From a virus, in the IMG/VR virus record IMGVR_UViG_3300035670_000087: DNA of 24,541 nucleotides, one strand, 5' to 3'. The notes under the pieces are model-generated. The model did no database searches. It worked only from the letters and a program-made list of their open reading frames with translations, and was not told where the DNA came from. Of the stretch, positions 1-16,983 are shown one piece after another. How positions within the stretch are numbered: position 1 is the first letter of the stretch; each line of letters opens with the position of its first letter. The position numbers were made by a program, and so were the translations under genes.

Positions 1-391
1 AACTACCGGCAGTGCCTGATGTACCACTAGATCCATTAGCTCCTGAAGTTCCTGATGTTCCAGAAGTACCAGCAGGAGTTAAAGCCCAAGATGCTGTGGT
101 TGCAAAAGAAGCAGATGTAGCAAATGAGGCGGTACCAAATAATGATCCTGTTAAGAAAACAAAACTACCAGATACGACAACAGGTTCTCTGTTAAAAGTT
201 CCTAATCGTACTATGTTGTTAGAAAAAGCTTCTACTATTGGAATTCCGGAGATATCTTTTACAGCAAATAAAGATCCAGATAGATTATCTGTAATAGAAA
301 AAAGTTGTCCTTGCGAACCTTGTACATCTAAAAGTGTAGATCCAGACCCATTAATTATTAGGCCTTTACGGACTTTGAATTCATTTGCCAT
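1..391 (-). CDS. 5' part of a third Gly-Ser/Thr (Gly-X-Y) repeat fibre protein; runs off the left edge and is absent from the ORF track
   Basis: Manual translation from ATG at 391: MANEFKVRKGLIINGSGSTLLDVQGSQGQLFSITDNLSGSLFAVKDISGIPIVEAFS...GSLFGTASFATSASFATTASWALTPAGTSGTSGTSGANGSSGTSGTAG. The frame is open to the window edge, the N-terminus resembles the 614-aa fibre (FVARNGL), and an AAGGAG lies upstream. Confidence 0.9.
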   Translation of the reverse strand, partial: MANEFKVRKGLIINGSGSTLLDVQGSQGQLFSITDNLSGSLFAVKDISGIPIVEAFSNNIVRLGTFNREPVVVSGSFVFLTGSLFGTASFATSASFATTASWALTPAGTSGTSGTSGANGSSGTSGTAGS

Positions 392-398
392 ATATATC

Positions 399-422
399 TC
401 CTTCTTTCATTATCCAAAAGGA
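399..422 (-). promoter_or_regulatory. 5'-leader hairpin, 7-bp stem (UCCUUUU/AGAAGGA) with GGAUAAUGAA loop, covering an SD-like AAGGAG
   Basis: Minus strand reads tcctttt-ggataatgaa-agaagga-gatatat-ATG. The loop matches the hairpin at 4656-4679. Confidence 0.7.
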
Positions 423-428
423 TCAGTA

Positions 429-439
429 ATAAATATTAA
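429..439 (-). promoter_or_regulatory. Putative phage (late) promoter motif TTAATATTTAT
   Basis: 10/11 match to TTGATATTTAT, which lies upstream of the other two fibre genes. Overlaps the stop codon of the 85-aa gene. Confidence 0.55.
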
Positions 440-693
440 GGAATTGGATTTGGATCAGTCCATTCGGCAGTTGAAAGTATACTTAATATTTCAGTGTAGG
501 TATAAGGACCTTGTTTAGTAGTTAGTGCGTCTACTGACGGTGGTACAGTTGTACCATCCCATTTTACAAATGTCTTTGTTTGATCTACTGACTTTCTTAC
601 TGTGTCAGCTGATGTTTCTAATACTTCGTTAAAATTAATTGTGTCTAATTCAGACACATCGAAGATCATAAATTCTCTGTTTTCGTATGCCAT
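436..693 (-). CDS. Small acidic hypothetical protein (85 aa), possible fibre/lectin-head accessory or chaperone
   Basis: Clean ORF 3 nt downstream of the LamG array. Function is inferred only from position. Confidence 0.8.
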   Translation of the reverse strand: MAYENREFMIFDVSELDTINFNEVLETSADTVRKSVDQTKTFVKWDGTTVPPSVDALTTKQGPYTYTEILSILSTAEWTDPNPIP

Positions 694-696
694 AGT

Positions 697-1416
697 TTAT
701 AAATTAAAGCGTGATTTTTGTGCGTTATAGTTTTGTAGGATTTCTGATGCTGATAGGGCCCTATTATATACTTTATGTAAAAAAATATTTCCATTCCACT
801 GATAATTTCCTCCTGCAAACCTTCCTAGCCAAACTCTTCCAGTATTTGTTGTATTTGAATTAATTGTTATACTCCTTGTAAATACATTAGATCCATTTAT
901 ATAATGCCTTATATTGTTTGTTGATGATGTTTTATCAATAGTTACTTGATAATAAATTAAAGTATTTAAAGAAAAAGTTGTTATTAGAGGCTCTTCATAT
1001 GATGTTCCGGTAGTATTATAAAATAATTTAAACCCAGTTGGAGTATTAGTACTGTCATGAAAACACCCTAATGCCCCACTTACCCCTCCACTATCTCTGT
1101 AATCAAATAAGTATTGTCTACCTATAGTGCCTCCACTATAACTTGCTAAATTAAATACTGTTTCAATCGTAATAGATGTCCAATTTTGCCATTTTACAGC
1201 ATCTAATGAATCCCATCCTACATAATCATTCACACCATCAAATACAATACTACCACCATTAGCACTGTTAAAAGTAGGGCCGTTAGTTAATGTCCCATTA
1301 TTACCATTCCCAGATAAATCAGTCCAAGTAGTACCACTACCAGGGTAAGACTTACTATTAGCGGCATCTAATGCCAGTACTAATCCGTCTGTTGATATGC
1401 TTGGTCCTGTAAACAT
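697..1416 (-). CDS. Concanavalin A-like/LamG-like lectin-domain protein (paralogue 5)
   Basis: GLVLALDAANSKSYPGSGTTWTDLSGNGNNGTLTNGPTF...FDGVNDYV start and YNRALSASEILQNYNAQKSRFNL end. TAATG overlap with the upstream gene. Confidence 0.85.
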   Translation of the reverse strand: MFTGPSISTDGLVLALDAANSKSYPGSGTTWTDLSGNGNNGTLTNGPTFNSANGGSIVFDGVNDYVGWDSLDAVKWQNWTSITIETVFNLASYSGGTIGRQYLFDYRDSGGVSGALGCFHDSTNTPTGFKLFYNTTGTSYEEPLITTFSLNTLIYYQVTIDKTSSTNNIRHYINGSNVFTRSITINSNTTNTGRVWLGRFAGGNYQWNGNIFLHKVYNRALSASEILQNYNAQKSRFNL

Positions 1417-2108
1417 TATAATCCTAATCTTGATTTTTGTGCGTTATAATTTTGTTGGACTTCTGATGCTGTTAAGGATCTATTATAAAATCTGGTTGAA
1501 TATACTTTACAATTTAAATGGTAATCAGTAGATACATCAGCCCTCCTTCCAATTAATCTAGGAGCTAAAGTAGGTGCTACATAAGTTCCTATATTACTTC
1601 CTGCATAACGAGTATTATTTACATATATAGCAGTATTAGATAAAGAGGAACTATCATAAGTAGCGACTAAATTTAAATAGGTACCGCTTGGAATAGTTCC
1701 TGGGGTTGATGAAGTACTGACTACTATAGTATTAGTAACAAACAAGTAAAAATATTGCCCATTATGCCAAAAAAGTTGATACCCTGCATTGGTGCTTATT
1801 GTTGAGAAAAAACCATAAAAAGCAGTAGATAAATTTTCTTCTAAAAGTAGAGTAATATCTATTGTAAAAGCACTGCTATCAAAAGATGCAATATTAGAAA
1901 ATTGAACATAATCATCTGTACTATCAAAATCTATACTACCATTATTAGCACTATCAAAAGTAGGGCCATTAGTTAAAGTACCATTATTACTATTACCACT
2001 TAAATCAAACCAAGTAGTTCCACTACCAGGATAGGATCTACTATTAGCAGCATCTAATGATAGTACTAATCCACTCGTTACTATATTTGATCCTCCTATA
2101 GTTGCCAT
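1416..2108 (-). CDS. ConA/LamG-like lectin-domain protein (paralogue 4)
   Basis: Same conserved termini (LDAANSRSYPGSGTTWFDLSG; YNRSLTASEVQQNYNAQKSRLGL) with a divergent centre. Confidence 0.85.
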   Translation of the reverse strand: MATIGGSNIVTSGLVLSLDAANSRSYPGSGTTWFDLSGNSNNGTLTNGPTFDSANNGSIDFDSTDDYVQFSNIASFDSSAFTIDITLLLEENLSTAFYGFFSTISTNAGYQLFWHNGQYFYLFVTNTIVVSTSSTPGTIPSGTYLNLVATYDSSSLSNTAIYVNNTRYAGSNIGTYVAPTLAPRLIGRRADVSTDYHLNCKVYSTRFYNRSLTASEVQQNYNAQKSRLGL

Positions 2109-2800
2109 TATAAATCGAATCTTGATTTTAGTGCGTTATAGTTTTGTTCTATTTCTGATGCTGAAAGAGCACGGTTGTATATTTTTACGTTCGCTATTCT
2201 CCCATTAAACCATCTGGTTGCGTCCAGCCTACCTACTACAAAAGGATTTATAGTAATATTAGGAGTTGTATTTGTACTTTCCACTGCTCCGGTTCTTTCT
2301 TGAGAATTTACATATAACTTAGTTGTAGATCCTATCAATCCGGGAGTTTTAGTAAAAGTAACATAATACCATGTTTGTACATTTAAAGACGTATTATCTC
2401 TAAATCTATTATTCCAAAAATCTAGAGCTATTCTTCCTTCACGCCACGTAGTACTCAATCCCTGATTTCCTACACCAGTTGAATTATTTCCTACTCCTGA
2501 TGGGTAATTAGTTGAAAAAACTGCTCCATCCCATATAGCAAAATAAGATATAGTAAAAGACGGGTTTCCGGATATAGGAAGGTTTGATGTTCCTATCACA
2601 TAATCATCAATCCCATCAAACACAATACTTCCTTCATTAGCACTATTAAAAGTTGGGCCATTAGTTAAAGTACCATTATACCCATTACCACTTAGATCAC
2701 TCCAAGTAGTTCCACTACCAGGGTACGATTTGGGATTTGCCGCATCTAATGCTAGTACTAATCCATCTGTTACAACATTTGCCCCTCTGTAAAATCCCAT
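2108..2800 (-). CDS. ConA/LamG-like lectin-domain protein (paralogue 3)
   Basis: Same conserved termini, plus LamG-type TWYYVTFT and FNGRIANVKIYNRALS segments. Confidence 0.85.
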   Translation of the reverse strand: MGFYRGANVVTDGLVLALDAANPKSYPGSGTTWSDLSGNGYNGTLTNGPTFNSANEGSIVFDGIDDYVIGTSNLPISGNPSFTISYFAIWDGAVFSTNYPSGVGNNSTGVGNQGLSTTWREGRIALDFWNNRFRDNTSLNVQTWYYVTFTKTPGLIGSTTKLYVNSQERTGAVESTNTTPNITINPFVVGRLDATRWFNGRIANVKIYNRALSASEIEQNYNALKSRFDL

Positions 2801-2801
2801 A

Positions 2802-4646
2802 TTATAACAATCTTACAAGTGATTTAATAGTCCATAATGTATTTGAAGCAGAGGCTTGTAGTTGTACACTAGTAGAAGTTAATGCTGCTTGTAGTATTAT
2901 ACCAGCTGTGCTTCCATTTACATCTGCTGTGTAGTTCTCAAACCATTCTATAGATCCTCCACCCCAAGTAGAATATACTGTACCAGCTCTAGCTATAGAT
3001 CCGCTGTATGCCACATAGTCAAAGAAGGCTGCCCTGTATGAACTTGTTAGTTCAGATGCTATTACTTGATAAGATCCTACAGCTACTGATGTGTTTTGAT
3101 TATAGTCTAATGTAGCAGATATTACAGATAGGCTACCAGTTATAATAACACTTCCTGTGAAGGTGTGAGTATCGGCTATGCTATCTCCGAATATATTGCT
3201 ACCGCTACTATATAGTACTGAAGACGTTACAGTTTGTACTACTAATGTATTGGCTGTGATATTTCCAGTAGAAGATATATTTCCTGCTACAGATAACGTA
3301 GTCCCATCAAATGTTAAGTTAGCTTCGGCATTAGCTGTGTTAGTAGTTCCTAGTGAAGTTAATACCCTGTTATCTACAGCGTTAGTTATAGTGTTAAATC
3401 CTGTACCTGAGGTACCTGATGTACCGCTTGATCCAGTAGATCCCGATGAACCAGATGATCCAGATGACCCTGAGCTACCCGACGTGCCAGAAGTTCCTGA
3501 AGATCCGCTTGTACCTGTAGAGCCAGAACTTCCACTAGTACCAGTTGATCCACTAGATCCTGAAGAACCCCTAGATCCTGAAGAACCACTGCTTCCAGAA
3601 GTTCCACTAGAACCGCTAGTTCCTGTAGAACCTGATGATCCGCTAGTTCCATTAGCTCCGCTTGTTCCTGAAGAACCTGATGTGCCTGTACTACCTGATG
3701 AACCGCTAGTTCCACTAACTCCACTAGATCCTGCTGATCCACTTGTACCGGATGAACCTGAAGAACCTCTAGTTCCTGAGGAACCACTTGAACCTGAAGT
3801 ACCAGAAGTACCGCTACTACCTGATGTACCATTTGCACCACTAGTTCCAGAAGATCCTGAAGTACCAGTAGAGCCTGAGCTACCTGTACTACCTGATGAA
3901 CCGGAAGTACCTGTAGAACCACTACTACCAGAAGTTCCAGAAGAACCTGACGTACCTGTTGTTCCAGATGATCCACTAGTTCCTGTAGAACCGCTACTTC
4001 CTGATGTACCATTTACTCCAGAAGTTCCTGAGGATCCTGCTGTACCACTAGATCCAGCACTACCACTAGTTCCTGTAGAACCGGAAGAACCAGATGTACC
4101 AGTAGAGCCACTAGACCCACTAGTTCCTGTAGAACCGGAAGAACCAGATGTTCCTGTACTACCGCTGCTACCAGATGATCCTCTAGTACCTGATGACCCA
4201 GAGGATCCAGATGTTCCAGTACTACCAGAGGATCCAGATGTCCCACTTGAACCAGAACTTCCACTAGTTCCTGTTGAACCAGAAGATCCACTAGATCCTG
4301 ATGAACCGCTAGTGCCACTAGTTCCAGTGCTACCAGATGATCCACTCGATCCCGAACTTCCTGCTGTTCCAGAGGTGCCAGAAGATCCTGCTGTACCACT
4401 AGATCCAGAAGTACCCGAAGTACCAGATGTATTAGTGGTGGAAGATCTAAAGAAGAACTGTCCACTACCTGTATCTACTACTACGTAGTTATTTAAACTA
4501 TTAGAACTTAAATTAACATTAATAGATCCTGTAATGCTAGTAGTTCCTATTACATATAGGGACCCCGATATACCTGTAGAGCCAGTTATGTATGTATTAT
4601 CTAAGGCAATAAGCCCGTTTCGGGCTACAAAAGGTCCGTTTGGCAT
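2802..4646 (-). CDS. Collagen-like Gly-Ser/Thr repeat fibre protein (614 aa)
   Basis: 113 Gly-X-Y triplets (3408-4424), followed by GTGFNTI..NRVLTS..NAEANLTFDG, a THTFTGS module and a C-terminal domain homologous to that of the 3329-aa protein. Confidence 0.85.
   Translation of the reverse strand: MPNGPFVARNGLIALDNTYITGSTGISGSLYVIGTTSITGSINVNLSSNSLNNYVVVDTGSGQFFFRSSTTNTSGTSGTSGSSGTAGSSGTSGTAGSSGSSGSSGSTGTSGTSGSSGSSGSSGSTGTSGSSGSSGTSGSSGSTGTSGSSGSSGTRGSSGSSGSTGTSGSSGSTGTSGSSGSTGTSGSSGSTGTSGSAGSSGTAGSSGTSGVNGTSGSSGSTGTSGSSGTTGTSGSSGTSGSSGSTGTSGSSGSTGSSGSTGTSGSSGTSGANGTSGSSGTSGTSGSSGSSGTRGSSGSSGTSGSAGSSGVSGTSGSSGSTGTSGSSGTSGANGTSGSSGSTGTSGSSGTSGSSGSSGSRGSSGSSGSTGTSGSSGSTGTSGSSGTSGTSGSSGSSGSSGSSGSTGSSGTSGTSGTGFNTITNAVDNRVLTSLGTTNTANAEANLTFDGTTLSVAGNISSTGNITANTLVVQTVTSSVLYSSGSNIFGDSIADTHTFTGSVIITGSLSVISATLDYNQNTSVAVGSYQVIASELTSSYRAAFFDYVAYSGSIARAGTVYSTWGGGSIEWFENYTADVNGSTAGIILQAALTSTSVQLQASASNTLWTIKSLVRLL
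3408..4424 (-). repeat. Gly-X-Y coding repeat (9-nt period), 113 triplets
   Basis: 1017 nt = 113 x 9. Triplets are GSS/GTS/GST/GTA/GSA with rare GTR, GAN and GVN. Confidence 0.95.
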
Positions 4647-4655
4647 ATAATCTCT

Positions 4656-4679
4656 GTCTCAGTTCCCTATCCCTGAGAC
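4656..4679 (-). promoter_or_regulatory. 5'-leader hairpin, perfect 7-bp stem (GUCUCAG/CUGAGAC) with GGAUAGGGAA loop
   Basis: Minus strand reads gtctcag-ggatagggaa-ctgagac-agagattat-ATG. Confidence 0.75.
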
Positions 4680-4689
4680 GGGGGTTTGA

Positions 4690-4702
4690 ATATAAATATC
4701 AA
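4690..4702 (-). promoter_or_regulatory. Putative phage (late) promoter motif TTGATATTTATAT
   Basis: Identical 13-mer at 16971-16983. Both copies are intergenic and upstream of fibre genes. Confidence 0.65.
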
Positions 4703-5425
4703 TTACAAGCCAAATCTACTTTTTTGTGCGTTGTAGTTTTGTAAAACTTCTTGTGCTGATAAAGTTCTTTTATATATTTGAACTATAGGAATACTTCCTT
4801 TAAATACTAGACCACTCCCAGTTCTCATTCCTATAGTTAAATTATAGGCATTAGTTGGACATGTACCTGAATTATTTTTTGTATATGTGGAACCGAAAAC
4901 ACCATTAAAGTAGGAAGTTTCTATTCTATTATTTAAAGTCCAACCTACGTGATACCAAGTATTAGCTGCCCAATCCCCTCCTGGTTTATAAGAATTCATG
5001 CCTTCATCATAAGATCCGCAACTTAAAGGTCCTGAGGATGTATAAGTGTGTATATACCCTCCGGGATATATACCTAATTCATATTCTGTATAATGTTTAC
5101 CAACTAAACATTGCCTATAAGGAAGCCCGTTTTGGGGTATTTTAAACCATACTAGAATAGTAATATTATAACTCATGTTTAGAGATTGAGATGTAGTTTT
5201 ATATACATAATCGTCAATCCCATCAAATACTATAGTTCCTCCAGCATCATTGCTAAATGTAGGTCCGTTTGTTAATGTTCCGTTATTATTATTGCCACTA
5301 ACATCTTTCCAAATAGTCCCAGAAGTCATTGGATAATAAGAAGTATTAGATCCGGCATCTAAATAAAATACTAGACCTTCTTTAACTATATTTGGGCCTC
5401 TCCATCCTGCATTTATTGTACTCAT
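4703..5425 (-). CDS. ConA/LamG-like lectin-domain protein (paralogue 2)
   Basis: GLVFYLDAG..SY..SGTIWKDVSGNNNNGTLTNGPTF, NTWYHVGWT and LSAQEVLQNYNAQKSRFGL. ATGA overlap with the upstream gene. Confidence 0.85.
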   Translation of the reverse strand: MSTINAGWRGPNIVKEGLVFYLDAGSNTSYYPMTSGTIWKDVSGNNNNGTLTNGPTFSNDAGGTIVFDGIDDYVYKTTSQSLNMSYNITILVWFKIPQNGLPYRQCLVGKHYTEYELGIYPGGYIHTYTSSGPLSCGSYDEGMNSYKPGGDWAANTWYHVGWTLNNRIETSYFNGVFGSTYTKNNSGTCPTNAYNLTIGMRTGSGLVFKGSIPIVQIYKRTLSAQEVLQNYNAQKSRFGL

Positions 5426-6924: not shown

Positions 6925-9900
6925 TTATATTGCTCTAATAATTGTTTTAACTACCCATCCCACACTGTTAACAGATCCTGTAATCACAAAGTCACTACCA
7001 GATATAATACCTCCAAACATAATATCTGTAGTATCTCCAAACCCATTCAAAGAGGTATCTGTTATATCTACCTGAGATCCTGACCACACAGACATTAAGC
7101 TTCCTGCTCTAATATTAGATCCACTCTTTGCTGTATATTCCACAAACATTCCATCATAAGACGCTGTAGCTATTGAGTATACAGTGAAACTTCCTATTGC
7201 AGTAGTAGATATTCTTTTAGAAGTGTTTAATACTGGGGCATTATAATCTCCTATAAGTGTAGTTGAATCGCTAAATACTTCTAATATAGGAAGACCTGAT
7301 ATATCATTTACACTAAATAATGAACCTGATAAACTATCTACTATAGAGAACAGCTCTCCTTGGCTTCCTTGTATGCTAAATATTGGCTGCGCTGATCCTG
7401 ACCCTACTACGGTTAACCTTTGTGTGCCAGATCCAGACACTAATATTGCAGACGCAGTTATTGTTTGTGCTAGAGTATTACCTACAATATTTAAAGATCC
7501 TGTGATATTCATAGATCCTGTAACTCTATGAGCATCACTTACAACATTACCTATAGCTACACCTGTTTGAGACACTCTTAGCTCTACCGCACTGCCTGTT
7601 GATACTATGAGAGATCCTACAATTGTAGTGTCTCCATTTAGTGCAGATGTTCCTATAATAGTATAGCTTCCGCTTACAGTTATACTACCAGTGAACTGAT
7701 GCGTATCTGCTGTGCTGTCTCCAAACTTAGTGCTTCCGCTAGTTACAATTACTGAGGATGTTATGTACTCTACTATTAATGTTTGTGCATTTATAGTATT
7801 AGTTACTACAAGAGATCCAGTTATTGTAGTGCTTCCAGATATTGCTACTGATCCGTTGTTTACTAAAAGTACTGCTGATGCTGTAGCTGCATTTAGACTT
7901 CCGTCAGACACTACTACTCTTCCTTGTGCAGCATTGCTTATAGTATTGAAACCAGTACCAGAAGTACCACTAGATCCTGTTGATCCTGCTGAGCCCGATG
8001 TACCGCTAGATCCTGATGTTCCGCTAGTACCTGTAGAGCCTGAGCTTCCAGAAGTACCACTAGATCCTGTTGATCCACTAGAACCTGAGCTACCAGCAGA
8101 TCCAGATGTTCCTGTAGAACCAGATGAACCAGAAGATCCTCTAGTTCCTGAAGAACCGCTTGTACCTGTACTACCAGATGATCCAGAAGTTCCTGTTGAT
8201 CCAGAACTTCCTGTTGATCCAGAACTTCCAGATGTTCCAGTAGATCCTGATGAACCAGATGTTCCTGAAGTACCAGATGAACCAGAAGTTCCTGTAGAAC
8301 CTGAAGAACCAGATGTACCAGTAGATCCACTACTACCTGATGAACCACTGCTTCCACTAGTTCCACTAGTTCCTGATGTACCAGTAGTTCCTGCTGAACC
8401 AGATGTACCGCTAGTTCCAGAAGAACCAGTAGAGCCTGAGCTTCCAGAGCTACCGGAAGAACCTGATGTACCCGAAGTCCCAGTTGTACCCGATGTTCCC
8501 GAAGATCCTCTAGTTCCAGAGCTACCACTTGTACCGCTTGTACCAGAACTTCCGGTAGAACCACTTGAACCGGATGAGCCAGATGTACCGCTAGTTCCAG
8601 TTGATCCTGAAGATCCAGAGGACCCTGATGAACCGCTAGTTCCTGTAGAACCAGACGATCCGCTTGATCCTGAGGTACCGGATGTACCTGTGGAACCAGA
8701 TGATCCAGAACTTCCACTAGATCCTGATGAACCGGATGTGCCTGTGCTACCACTTGATCCTGATGTTCCGGTAGAACCTGAAGAACCAGATGTTCCAGAA
8801 GAACCAGTTGAGCCTGAGCTACCGCTAGTACCGGTAGATCCTGATGTGCCACTAGTACCACTTGATCCTCTTGTACCTGAAGTACCGGAACTACCTGATG
8901 AGCCAGAAGATCCTGCTGTACCTGAGGTACCACTAGTTGCAGCAGTGTAGGAAGTACCATTTATGAACAATGATCCACTTATTCTAACACTTCCTGTAAA
9001 TTCATGAGTATTATTAACAAGTGTTCCAAAATGGGTAGAACCTGTAACCAGTTCTACACTAGCAGTTATAGTTTGTACTATTAAAGTCTGAGCTGTTAAT
9101 GTTCCTCTTACAGTAAGATTATCTGCTGAAGAGGCTGTCAATGCGTTAGTTGCCCAACTAGAAGTGCCTATTAAGTTACCTACAAAAGATCCGGTGAATG
9201 ATCCTGATATAGAAGGTACTGTCTTTGTGTTTTGCCACTCAGCTCCGTTGTACACTAATAGATCTCCTGTTGCTACATTTGAAATTGCTACATCAGATAA
9301 ATCATTTAATGATACTGCTGCAGCCGCTCCACCACCACCTCCAGTAGTGTTTCTAAACGATCCAGCTTGTATTATTTTTACATCTGTTGTGTTTGATAAA
9401 TCAGTTGTGCCTGATTTTATGACTATATATCCTAAAAATATAGCTTGTGTTGCTGTATTATTATTTTCCTCAAATGTTTCGTAAGGAAGATTGGATAAAG
9501 CTGTTGCTATAGAATTATAAATTTCTCTACCATAGTAAACACCTATTGTGTTAGGTTGATTAGGGAAGTAAAATACTCTTTGTATTGAATATTGTCCACC
9601 AGGAGCAGCAGATAATCCTGTTGATGTTGTTGGAGTATTATAGTTTCCAGGATCTAATACAGTTGTTCCTGTAGTAGTTACAAAAACAGATCCTGATTTA
9701 TAATACCTAAATACGTTTGGTGCATTATACCCTGCATCCGATACTAAAGAAGGTTTATTTGCATCATTAACGTAATTTCTACCTAAAGAGTATGATTTAC
9801 CTTCAGTTCTATTTAGAGAAAGACTGGAACCGCTAGGTTCTATTGTATGTCCAGATATCTTTATTCCACCAAAAGCTCTAATAAATTCATAAGTTTGTTG

Positions 9901-16914: not shown

Positions 16915-16930
16915 ATGTATGGAACGGTTC

Positions 16931-16975
16931 TAGTATATACCAAACAGCTTTCGCTGGCCTATATAGGCGTATATA
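16931..16975 (-). promoter_or_regulatory. Structured 5' leader of the giant fibre gene (adjacent mini-hairpins or a three-way junction)
   Basis: Minus strand: tatatac-GCCTatatAGGC-CAGCgaaaGCTG-tttg-gtatata, with a GNRA (GAAA) tetraloop. Confidence 0.55.
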
Positions 16976-16983
16976 AATATCAA
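16971..16983 (-). promoter_or_regulatory. Putative phage (late) promoter motif TTGATATTTATAT
   Basis: Identical to 4690-4702. Confidence 0.65.

Follow-up and report, generated by a model that had tools for sequence, protein, structure and literature searches.

Results

Two hairpins in the leaders of fibre genes

The stretch of viral DNA analysed here (IMG/VR record IMGVR_UViG_3300035670_000087, 24,541 nucleotides (nt); hereafter, the window) carries two small hairpins, A and B, in the leaders of two tail-fibre genes. All long genes of the window are encoded by the minus strand, and the hairpins are accordingly read on this coding strand. A first-pass annotation had listed the two hairpins together with an upstream motif, their distances to the ATG and the starts of the downstream proteins; every one of these items is present, on the minus strand, as follows.

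429..436, minus strand: ATATTTAT, late-promoter-like motif 5' of hairpin A, overlapping the stop codon of an 85-amino-acid (aa) open reading frame (ORF); 6 nt to the stem base
399..422, minus strand: hairpin A, 7-base-pair (bp) stem (416-422 with 399-405), 10-nt loop GGAUAAUGAA (406-415)
2..391, minus strand: fibre gene A, product beginning MANEFKVRKGL, running off the window end
4692..4699, minus strand: ATATTTAT, late-promoter-like motif 5' of hairpin B; 12 nt to the stem base
4656..4679, minus strand: hairpin B, perfect 7-bp stem (4673-4679 with 4656-4662), 10-nt loop GGAUAGGGAA (4663-4672)
2802..4646, minus strand: fibre gene B, 614 aa, product beginning MPNGPFVARNGL, with a collagen-like Gly-X-Y core

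Hairpin A consists of the arms UCCUUUU (5', 422-416) and AGAAGGA (3', 405-399), which include one G.U pair, and the loop at 415-406, and is separated from the ATG (391-389) by a 7-nt spacer (392-398); in hairpin B, the arms GUCUCAG (4679-4673) and CUGAGAC (4662-4656) are followed by a 9-nt spacer (4647-4655) and the ATG (4646-4644). The N-terminal domain of gene A has matches at about 80 IMG/VR loci. Gene B matches PHROG tail-fibre families as well as Pfam Collagen, and the N-terminus of its product, MPNGPFVARNGL, is one residue longer than MANEFVARNG in relatives and MPNEFVARNG in the complete genome of one relative, G002.

Taken alone, the window contains no significant hairpin signal. The loop pattern GGATANNGAA occurs twice compared to approximately one expected occurrence, and 28 of 100 shuffled sequences reach two; the 66-nt leaders fold no better than shuffled sequences (z = −0.68 and −0.23), and the minimum-energy fold of the leader of gene A does not include the hairpin. 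Folded in isolation, hairpin A has an energy of −5.1 kcal/mol and hairpin B of −9.3 kcal/mol (z = −3.4). It is the comparison with other phages, described below, that lifts the signal above chance. No complement to either loop was found on the coding strand of the window, so that nothing points to a local antisense or kissing partner.

Presence of the hairpin in homologous leaders

Homologous IMG/VR loci were first fetched with the N-terminal protein sequence of gene A, and their leaders were aligned at the ATG; nearly all of these leaders contain a stem, a GGA..GAA loop and a stem, and the stems differ. Unbiased sets of leaders were obtained by scanning IMG/VR by coding start only, without selecting on the hairpin. 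Among the distinct leaders of genes with MANEFK[VI][KR]KG starts, 61 of 63 carry the hairpin, whereby 50 have the exact loop pattern, 10 have the form ACC-C/GGAAAAUGAA/A-GGU and one has GGAAUAUGAA; the other two have none. The ACC-C/GGAAAAUGAA/A-GGU variant is thus common, and its stem consists of 3 bp and a C.A mismatch adjoining the loop. Of the 60 distinct leaders of genes with MANEF[VI]ARNG starts, 51 carry the hairpin, for which 32 different stems were counted; in two others the loop ends in GAU, and in about seven the hairpin is degenerate or absent. This latter set includes near-copies of the stem of hairpin B, e.g. GUCUCAG/CUGAGGC with the loop GGACAGUGAA, and the loop of hairpin B, GGAUAGGGAA, is found on many unrelated stems ahead of MANEF[VI]ARNG genes. 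Hairpin A is identical in relatives with 90-92% sequence identity. Overall, well over a hundred contigs of uncultured T4-like phages have a member of the hairpin family ahead of a fibre gene of this kind.

A strict assignment of a 'type 1' and a 'type 2' loop to the two N-terminal peptides was rejected, given that both gene groups contain GGACAGUGAA as well as GGAAAGUGAA. When G+C-rich stems like that of B (TCAGGGA...GGGAACTG) were scanned for, the matches listed were in unrelated G+C-rich phages; B-like stems were recovered instead via the coding-start scan.

Covariation of the stem and invariance of the loop

For the analysis of covariation, 70 distinct hairpins with 10-nt loops were collected by the pattern GGA-N4-GAA (rare loop variants exist outside this set), leaving out the window and its 90% relative. 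Across the seven helix pairs, 91.2% are paired, compared to 53.8% in shuffled sets, and the covariation score is 0.962 vs. 0.241 for shuffles; none of 500 shuffles reaches the observed score, and slid registers score between 0.06 and 0.38. Double changes were identified in all seven pairs, in agreement with earlier, smaller sets, and there are 29 G.U or U.G cells among these pairs. The closing pair is U-A in 47 hairpins, G-C in 17, U-G in three, A-U in two and C-G in one. RNAalifold independently predicts the same helix, with an alignment folding term of −3.2 kcal/mol, and individual typical hairpins range from −2.6 to −5 kcal/mol. Thus, the claim of the first-pass annotation that the stem sequence changes under a conserved structure and loop is borne out by all seven pairs of the 70 hairpins.

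The stem comprises 3-9 bp and is weak, mostly A-U; its sequence drifts and the pairing stays. The loop consensus is G-G-A-N-A-D-K-G-A-A, with a length of 10 nt and rarely 11. Across the 70 pattern-selected hairpins, G1, G2, A3, G8, A9 and A10 are invariant, A5 is nearly so, and positions 5-7 are restricted as well, whereas flanks and stems vary. Every copy of the hairpin is oriented like its gene, and the distance between the 3' end of the hairpin and the ATG is 0-11 nt, with a mode of 7-8. The family can be described as a stem of at least 3 bp with a GGA-N-A-D-K-GAA loop, ending 0-11 nt ahead of the ATG of fibre genes with products of the form M-[AP]-N-x-F...[KR]-[KN]-G; hairpins A and B, with their 7-bp stems and distances of 7 and 9 nt, respectively, both conform to this description.

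A leave-out covariance model, R3, built from the 70 hairpins with the window excluded, recovers both hairpins of the window: B with 31.3 bits (expect value, E = 1.8 × 10−6) and A with 27.0 bits (E = 3.3 × 10−5), the next best match having 12.4 bits (E = 0.71). Thus, A and B are independent members of one family, as the first-pass annotation had assumed in treating them together. The first leave-out model, R2, from which G-C-closed stems were absent, gave only 15 bits for B (E = 0.29) and was replaced by R3. Weaker model matches in the window and in the relatives' genomes G001-G003 were dismissed because they lie inside coding regions.

The first-pass annotation had named a lack of further instances or of covariation in homologous leaders as the outcome that would speak against the element; the opposite is clearly the case, with 61 of 63 and about 53 of 60 leaders carrying it and a covariation score of 0.962. 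The existence of a family of leader hairpins is, in our assessment, nearly certain.

Gene specificity, carriers and novelty

The 20-nt core of the commonest form of the hairpin (19 specified bases) is present at 48 IMG/VR loci and is followed by a product start M[ANT]N.FK[VI][KR][KN]GL in all 47 readable cases. In 596 gigabases of bacterial and archaeal genomes, the same core has 42 matches, of which none lies ahead of this gene, and the combined pattern of hairpin and gene start has no match in these cellular genomes, so that there is no clue to the host from this side. The link between the hairpin and fibre-gene leaders, suggested at first by two cases, is therefore one with a single gene class, according to both the leader counts and the 47 of 47 core matches. 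The genes of this class are tail-fibre genes whose products begin M-[AP]-N-E-F.

In whole genomes of relatives, the hairpin is present in only one or two copies where it is present at all. G001 has one strong copy. G002 has two, as in the window: one ahead of MANEFKVRKGL and a second, with the 11-nt loop GGAAAUGGGAA on the stem CCUCAG/CUGGGG, ahead of MPNEFVARNG. No significant model match was found in G003, a 311-kb relative. The latter genome encodes a homologue of ribosomal protein bS21 (PF01165, 36 bits; L382, G003:C1:280791-280940) that was not found in G001 and G002.

The relatives encode a T4 gp23-type capsid protein, the nearest isolates by this protein being Flavobacterium phage immuto (54% identity), Microcystis phage Mel-JY01 (52%) and Rhodothermus phage RM378 (35%). 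By this sequence comparison, the carriers are a distant T4-like clade of uncultured aquatic phages related to immuto. The tail-fibre gene of immuto itself has a different start (not MANEF) and lacks the hairpin; a model match of 22.5 bits in immuto lies inside a gene overlap and was judged to be due to chance.

A search of the whole window against Rfam 15 gave no match at the gathering thresholds, and no match overlapping A or B was obtained for positions 300-5000 at E up to 10. The INPHARED collection of phages (50,697 records) contains no carrier, only chance matches to the combination of hairpin and gene start, and a literature search for the loop sequences found no paper that quotes them except as primers. 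As far as tested against these three sources, the hairpin family is new and uncatalogued, in agreement with the earlier description of the element as undescribed.

Promoter-like motif, leader length and Shine-Dalgarno sequences

The motif ATATTTAT occurs 42 times in the complete genome G002, with 32 of the 42 copies within 60 nt upstream of an ORF on the same strand, and it also follows terminators beside the capsid gene. From this distribution we infer that ATATTTAT(A/T) is the late promoter of the clade. The motif is the reverse complement of ATAAATAT and is near, but not identical to, TATAAATA of T4. The leaders that follow ATATTTAT in G002 are 4-26 nt long, A-rich and free of Shine-Dalgarno sequences, with two exceptions of 36 and 44 nt, which are the hairpin leaders; several copies of the motif are only 4-6 nt away from the ATG, suggestive of leaderless or nearly leaderless late mRNAs. 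Among 90 distinct hairpin leaders, the gap between the motif and the stem is 5-22 nt (mode 7, mostly 5-10, never less than 5).

No Shine-Dalgarno sequence was found in the other genes of the window or in the capsid-region genes of relatives that were checked; the clade appears not to use such sequences. The first-pass annotation had pointed out that the stem of hairpin A sequesters a Shine-Dalgarno-like AAGGAG. This is no general rule: the AAGGAG is confined to hairpin A and its close relatives, many 3' arms contain no GGA (e.g. AAAAAG, AACUAA and CUGAGAC), and no use of Shine-Dalgarno sequences is seen in the genes of the clade. The hairpins do not resemble intrinsic (Rho-independent) terminators either: their stems are mostly A-U rather than G+C-rich, and in place of a U run there is an A-rich spacer that leads to the ATG.

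Other leaders and genes

A third copy of ATATTTAT in the window, at 16973-16980, lies ahead of a giant fibre gene of 3329 aa (10 kb). Its leader (16915-16975, minus strand) contains a GCCUAUAUAGGC palindrome and a CAGC-GAAA-GCUG hairpin and lacks the GGA..GAA hairpin despite the same promoter motif. The N-terminal module of gene A (..VQGSQGQLFSITDNLSGSLFAVKDISGIPIVEAFSNN..; 2-391, minus strand) is found again close to the C-terminal end of the giant fibre (..IQGSQGELFSIVDSLSGSLFSVNDISGLPILEVFSD..; approximately 7000-7400, minus strand) and is also part of many other fibre proteins of phages. The 85-aa ORF that immediately precedes hairpin A (436-693, minus strand) has no match in Pfam or PHROG; its C-terminal end is also encoded 5' of the hairpin in the 90-92% relatives L001 and L002, and in more distant relatives it is a LamG-like gene that ends there. 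Long plus-strand ORFs (3-518, 3178-4488, 7712-8950 and similar ones), whose translations are rich in Pro, Glu, Val, Asp and Leu, were rejected as genes and attributed to antisense artefacts of minus-strand Gly-Ser/Thr triplet repeats.

Fibre genes with MPNWKK starts have a different, larger conserved leader after ATATTTAT, comprising a GGCCC-GUAA-GGG hairpin, an invariant GGGAAGU[GA]G, a variable hairpin and AACCAACC. This leader was located at the following positions.

L044:2372-2454, MPNWKK leader
L048:2294-2376, MPNWKK leader
L058:299-381, MPNWKK leader
L042:2792-2874, MPNWKK leader
L039:1064-1146, MPNWKK leader
L046:512-594, MPNWKK leader

On these six sequences only, RNAalifold predicts 11 pairs, three of them with double changes. 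The MPNWKK leader may be a second RNA motif. It has GGGAA in common with the GGAUAGGGAA loop.

Comparison with known RNA elements

Hairpins acting as translational operators are known in phages, e.g. the coat-protein operators at the replicase start of MS2, Qbeta and PP7 and the operator of gene 43 in T4 and RB69. The present family resembles these in being a small, weak hairpin with a sequence-specific loop and free stem sequence, located at or before the start of one gene. It differs from them in its 10-nt GGA...GAA loop (compared to loops of 4-8 nt), in the position of the start codon outside the hairpin and in the hosts, which apparently do not rely on Shine-Dalgarno sequences, and there is no sequence similarity. 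The family would be a new one within a known kind, the leader hairpin operators of phage genes.

Like the sites of CsrA/RsmE, the hairpin has an invariant GGA in a short-hairpin loop near the start codon, and many members have a second GGA in the 3' arm. However, this second GGA is missing in many other members, the GGA stands at the 5' edge of the loop, and the GAA at the 3' edge is equally invariant; with no CsrA found in G001-G003, the hairpins cannot be classified as CsrA/RsmA targets. In K-turns and K-loops, a 3-nt bulge is followed by a G.A/A.G tandem, which is bound by L7Ae; here, GGA is followed by N-A rather than G-A, and the L7Ae family (PF01248) was not found in the phage genomes in searches with positive controls. 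There is a likeness to the 5'GGA/3'AAG internal loop and to the non-canonical stem of the K-turn (PMC2952850), in that GGA and GAA could pair as G.A, G.A and A.G on the helix.

Several hairpins are known from the leaders of T4 genes. Genes 25 and 38 have split ribosome-binding sites, with a hairpin between the Shine-Dalgarno sequence and the AUG, and e, soc and I-TevI have hairpins that sequester the ribosome-binding site, with the late promoter inside the hairpin in e and soc. The present hairpin is similar in that it is found in leaders of T4-type late or structural genes, may tune initiation there and stands in a defined relation to the late promoter; it differs in that the whole hairpin is downstream of the promoter motif, the loop is conserved and there is no Shine-Dalgarno sequence. 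What lies 5' of the stem is the promoter motif and 5-22 variable nt, unlike the split sites of genes 25 and 38. The target of T4 RegB contains GGAG, and that of RegA is an AU-rich linear operator over the start. In the present family, the base after GGA is A, C or U with the exception of one member; searches of G001-G003 for RegB and RegA (PF10715 and PF01818) gave no match, with control genomes silent too. In FourU thermometers, a U run pairs with the AGGA of the Shine-Dalgarno sequence, and the site is freed by melting as the temperature changes. Many of the weak stems of the family pair a U run with an A run; however, no use of Shine-Dalgarno sequences is seen in the clade, and a thermometer would leave the invariant loop unexplained.

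The boxB elements of lambda and P22 are also short hairpins with purine-rich loops near the transcript start; they consist of a 5-bp stem on a GNRA-like pentaloop and act on transcription with N and boxA, whereas the present loop has 10 nt (rarely 11) and the hairpin keeps a constant spacing to the ATG. The hairpin in the 5' untranslated region of E. coli ompA is a 5'-terminal stabiliser, and such stabilisers need no particular loop. The family shares with them the location of a stem-loop a few nt from the predicted mRNA 5' end, but six or seven of its 10 loop positions are kept, and it is also present where there is no upstream promoter.

Insertion of endonuclease genes behind the hairpin

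In two unrelated IMG/VR contigs (L038:2268-3011 and L215:5031-5771), an ORF of about 240 aa is located exactly between the hairpin and the fibre gene. The products have GIY-YIG-like N-termini (MEKGIIYKITSPS... and MERIGYIYKITSPS...). Each inserted ORF uses the spacer and ATG of the hairpin, with spacers of 7 nt and 1 nt, i.e. within the 0-11 nt range, and its stop codon overlaps the start of the fibre gene, which has lost the Ala codon and now begins MNEF. The presence of an endonuclease ORF directly behind the hairpin in two independent cases suggests that hairpin and spacer together form a portable initiation region, and the conserved junction of hairpin and ATG looks like a homing target.

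Discussion

Possible functions of the hairpin

The reading we prefer, tentatively and with slightly less than even confidence, is that the hairpin is a gene-specific translational operator, the invariant GGA/GAA loop of which is read by a putative factor. Under this scheme, transcription would start a few nt after ATATTTAT, so that the late fibre mRNA would carry the hairpin at its 5' end or close to it, within the footprint of the ribosome. The invariant 5'-GGA and 3'-AAG could form consecutive sheared pairs (G.A, G.A and A.G) that would extend the stem under a 4-nt apical loop, and the resulting purine platform would be bound by a trans-acting factor, be it a phage protein, a host protein or the ribosome itself. 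By clamping the marginal hairpin beside the ATG, the putative factor would set the rate of fibre translation relative to other late genes, whose leaders are short and unstructured. Consecutive sheared G.A platforms are typical protein-binding surfaces, and 5'GGA/3'AAG is reportedly a motif solved by nuclear magnetic resonance, with three sheared G.A pairs. The weakness of the stems (3 bp and a mismatch in the common variant) argues for stabilisation by the loop structure or by a bound factor, and the persistence of the loop over approximately 60 stems, when G-C pairs would buy stability more cheaply, argues for specific recognition.

Several observations weigh against this reading. Because the GGA and GAA positions never vary, the proposed sheared G.A pairs are beyond the reach of covariation. 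The hairpin sets used for covariation required the loop pattern and at least three flanking pairs, so that covariation of the inner pairs is biased, and it is the presence counts by coding start that constitute the unbiased evidence. In 30 of the 90 hairpin leaders, ATATTTAT is not found within 40 nt, so the 5'-terminal position of the hairpin is not universal. Finally, CsrA was not detected in G001-G003 (controls positive), and neither were the L7Ae (PF01248), RRM and cold-shock-domain families in the carriers G001 and G002. RRM proteins were detected in the Bacteroides and Synechococcus control genomes, which makes a host factor conceivable.

With respect to the first-pass proposal of an undescribed cis-regulatory operator bound by a protein, a real and undescribed cis-acting RNA element is established, so that the proposal is partly supported; protein binding and the setting of fibre stoichiometry or timing are hypothetical, and none of the known RNA-binding families searched for was found in the carrier genomes. 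We consider it possible, with distinctly restrained confidence, that the hairpin is the operator of a new RNA-binding regulator (a phage protein of a novel family, a host protein of the RRM type or, autogenously, the N-terminal module of the fibre) that would read a platform of sheared GGA/GAA purines and meter the translation of baseplate-attached fibres in hosts without Shine-Dalgarno pairing.

The alternative that deserves the most attention, unlikely but by no means negligible, is a self-contained structure that acts without any trans-acting factor: a 5' hairpin stiffened by G.A pairs in the loop would block 5'-end-dependent decay, or it would dampen initiation in the ribosome landing zone and keep the rate of fibre synthesis below that of the capsid. 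In most leaders, the stem base lies 5-10 nt past the promoter-like motif; the other late genes have short leaders without structure, and no candidate RNA-binding protein was found in the carrier genomes; moreover, structure alone could account for the invariant GGA/GAA. However, stability could be provided by G-C pairs or a stable tetraloop, and one 10-nt loop on approximately 60 stems is left unexplained, as is the restriction of loop positions 5-7; a third of the leaders have no promoter motif within 40 nt upstream, and the hairpin is limited to one gene class rather than being found in late genes at large. The leaders in which the gene is read through from upstream and the hairpin is kept with no promoter motif nearby would suit a site for recognition or cleavage by an endoribonuclease, given also that the loop exposes GGA. 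A cut in the purine loop would detach the fibre cistron from the upstream message or strip the 5' arm and free the initiation region, comparable to the action of T4 RegB at GGAG. We regard this as improbable: instead of GGAG, the loop has GGA and then A, C or U (one of the 70 hairpins has G), and a search of the carrier genomes, the control of which was silent, did not detect a RegB homologue. An element of the nut/boxB or put-like type, which would load a factor on RNA polymerase or pause it on nascent RNA such that long fibre operons are read through, appears quite improbable as well. The hairpin directly follows the promoter-like motif, the genes behind it are long, and many loops contain GAAAA or GACAA, the sequences of the boxB pentaloops of lambda and P22; yet the loop has 10 nt and is not a pentaloop closed by the stem, the tightly kept distance to the ATG (0-11 nt) points to translation, the leader of the 10-kb giant fibre gene is a different one, and a boxA-like partner was not noticed (neither boxA nor N was searched for).

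Two further explanations can be given very little weight. Translation could start within the loop, where positions 6-8 read AUG, GUG or UUG in many members, and a ribosome on such a mini upstream ORF would open the 3' arm and be coupled to the fibre ATG. Position 6 is indeed A, G or U, and never C, in the 65 leaders with a loop other than GGAUAGGGAA, and the resulting ORFs are always short, with ends that range from 7 nt ahead of the ATG to 65 nt inside the gene and nearly always lie within 17 nt of the ATG. We find this most improbable, given that the abundant loops GGAUAGGGAA, GGAAAGGGAA, GGAAAGCGAA and GGAUAGAGAA contain no start codon, that neither length nor frame nor peptide is conserved and that AT-rich sequence yields short ORFs by chance. 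It is just as improbable, in our view, that the conserved element is one of DNA, i.e. a recombination or homing target or a protein-bound palindrome serving the exchange of fibre modules, with an incidental RNA fold. Here, the arms vary around a conserved centre, the reverse of what DNA-binding palindromes show, and both the sense-strand G.U pairs and the fixed position relative to the ATG are at odds with a DNA-level role. The hairpin and the first codons do form a block conserved at the nucleotide level before very different fibre bodies, and two lineages have a GIY-YIG-like endonuclease gene lodged precisely at the junction of the hairpin and the fibre ATG, but homing explains the targeting of a conserved sequence, not its conservation.

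Implications

Should the operator reading with a new regulator hold, the hairpin and its factor would constitute a new RNA-protein recognition pair and a portable module of translational control that is exploited by homing endonucleases too. To our knowledge, post-transcriptional control of tail fibres is almost unknown outside T4 and its close relatives, and we know of none described for the large clade around immuto and Mel-JY01, which comprises uncultured T4-like phages of aquatic origin. The motif is fit for inclusion in catalogues of RNA families and small enough for structural and binding studies, and, at about 24 nt, it offers a testable route to the balance between fibre and capsid and to the control of initiation in hosts without reliance on Shine-Dalgarno sequences.

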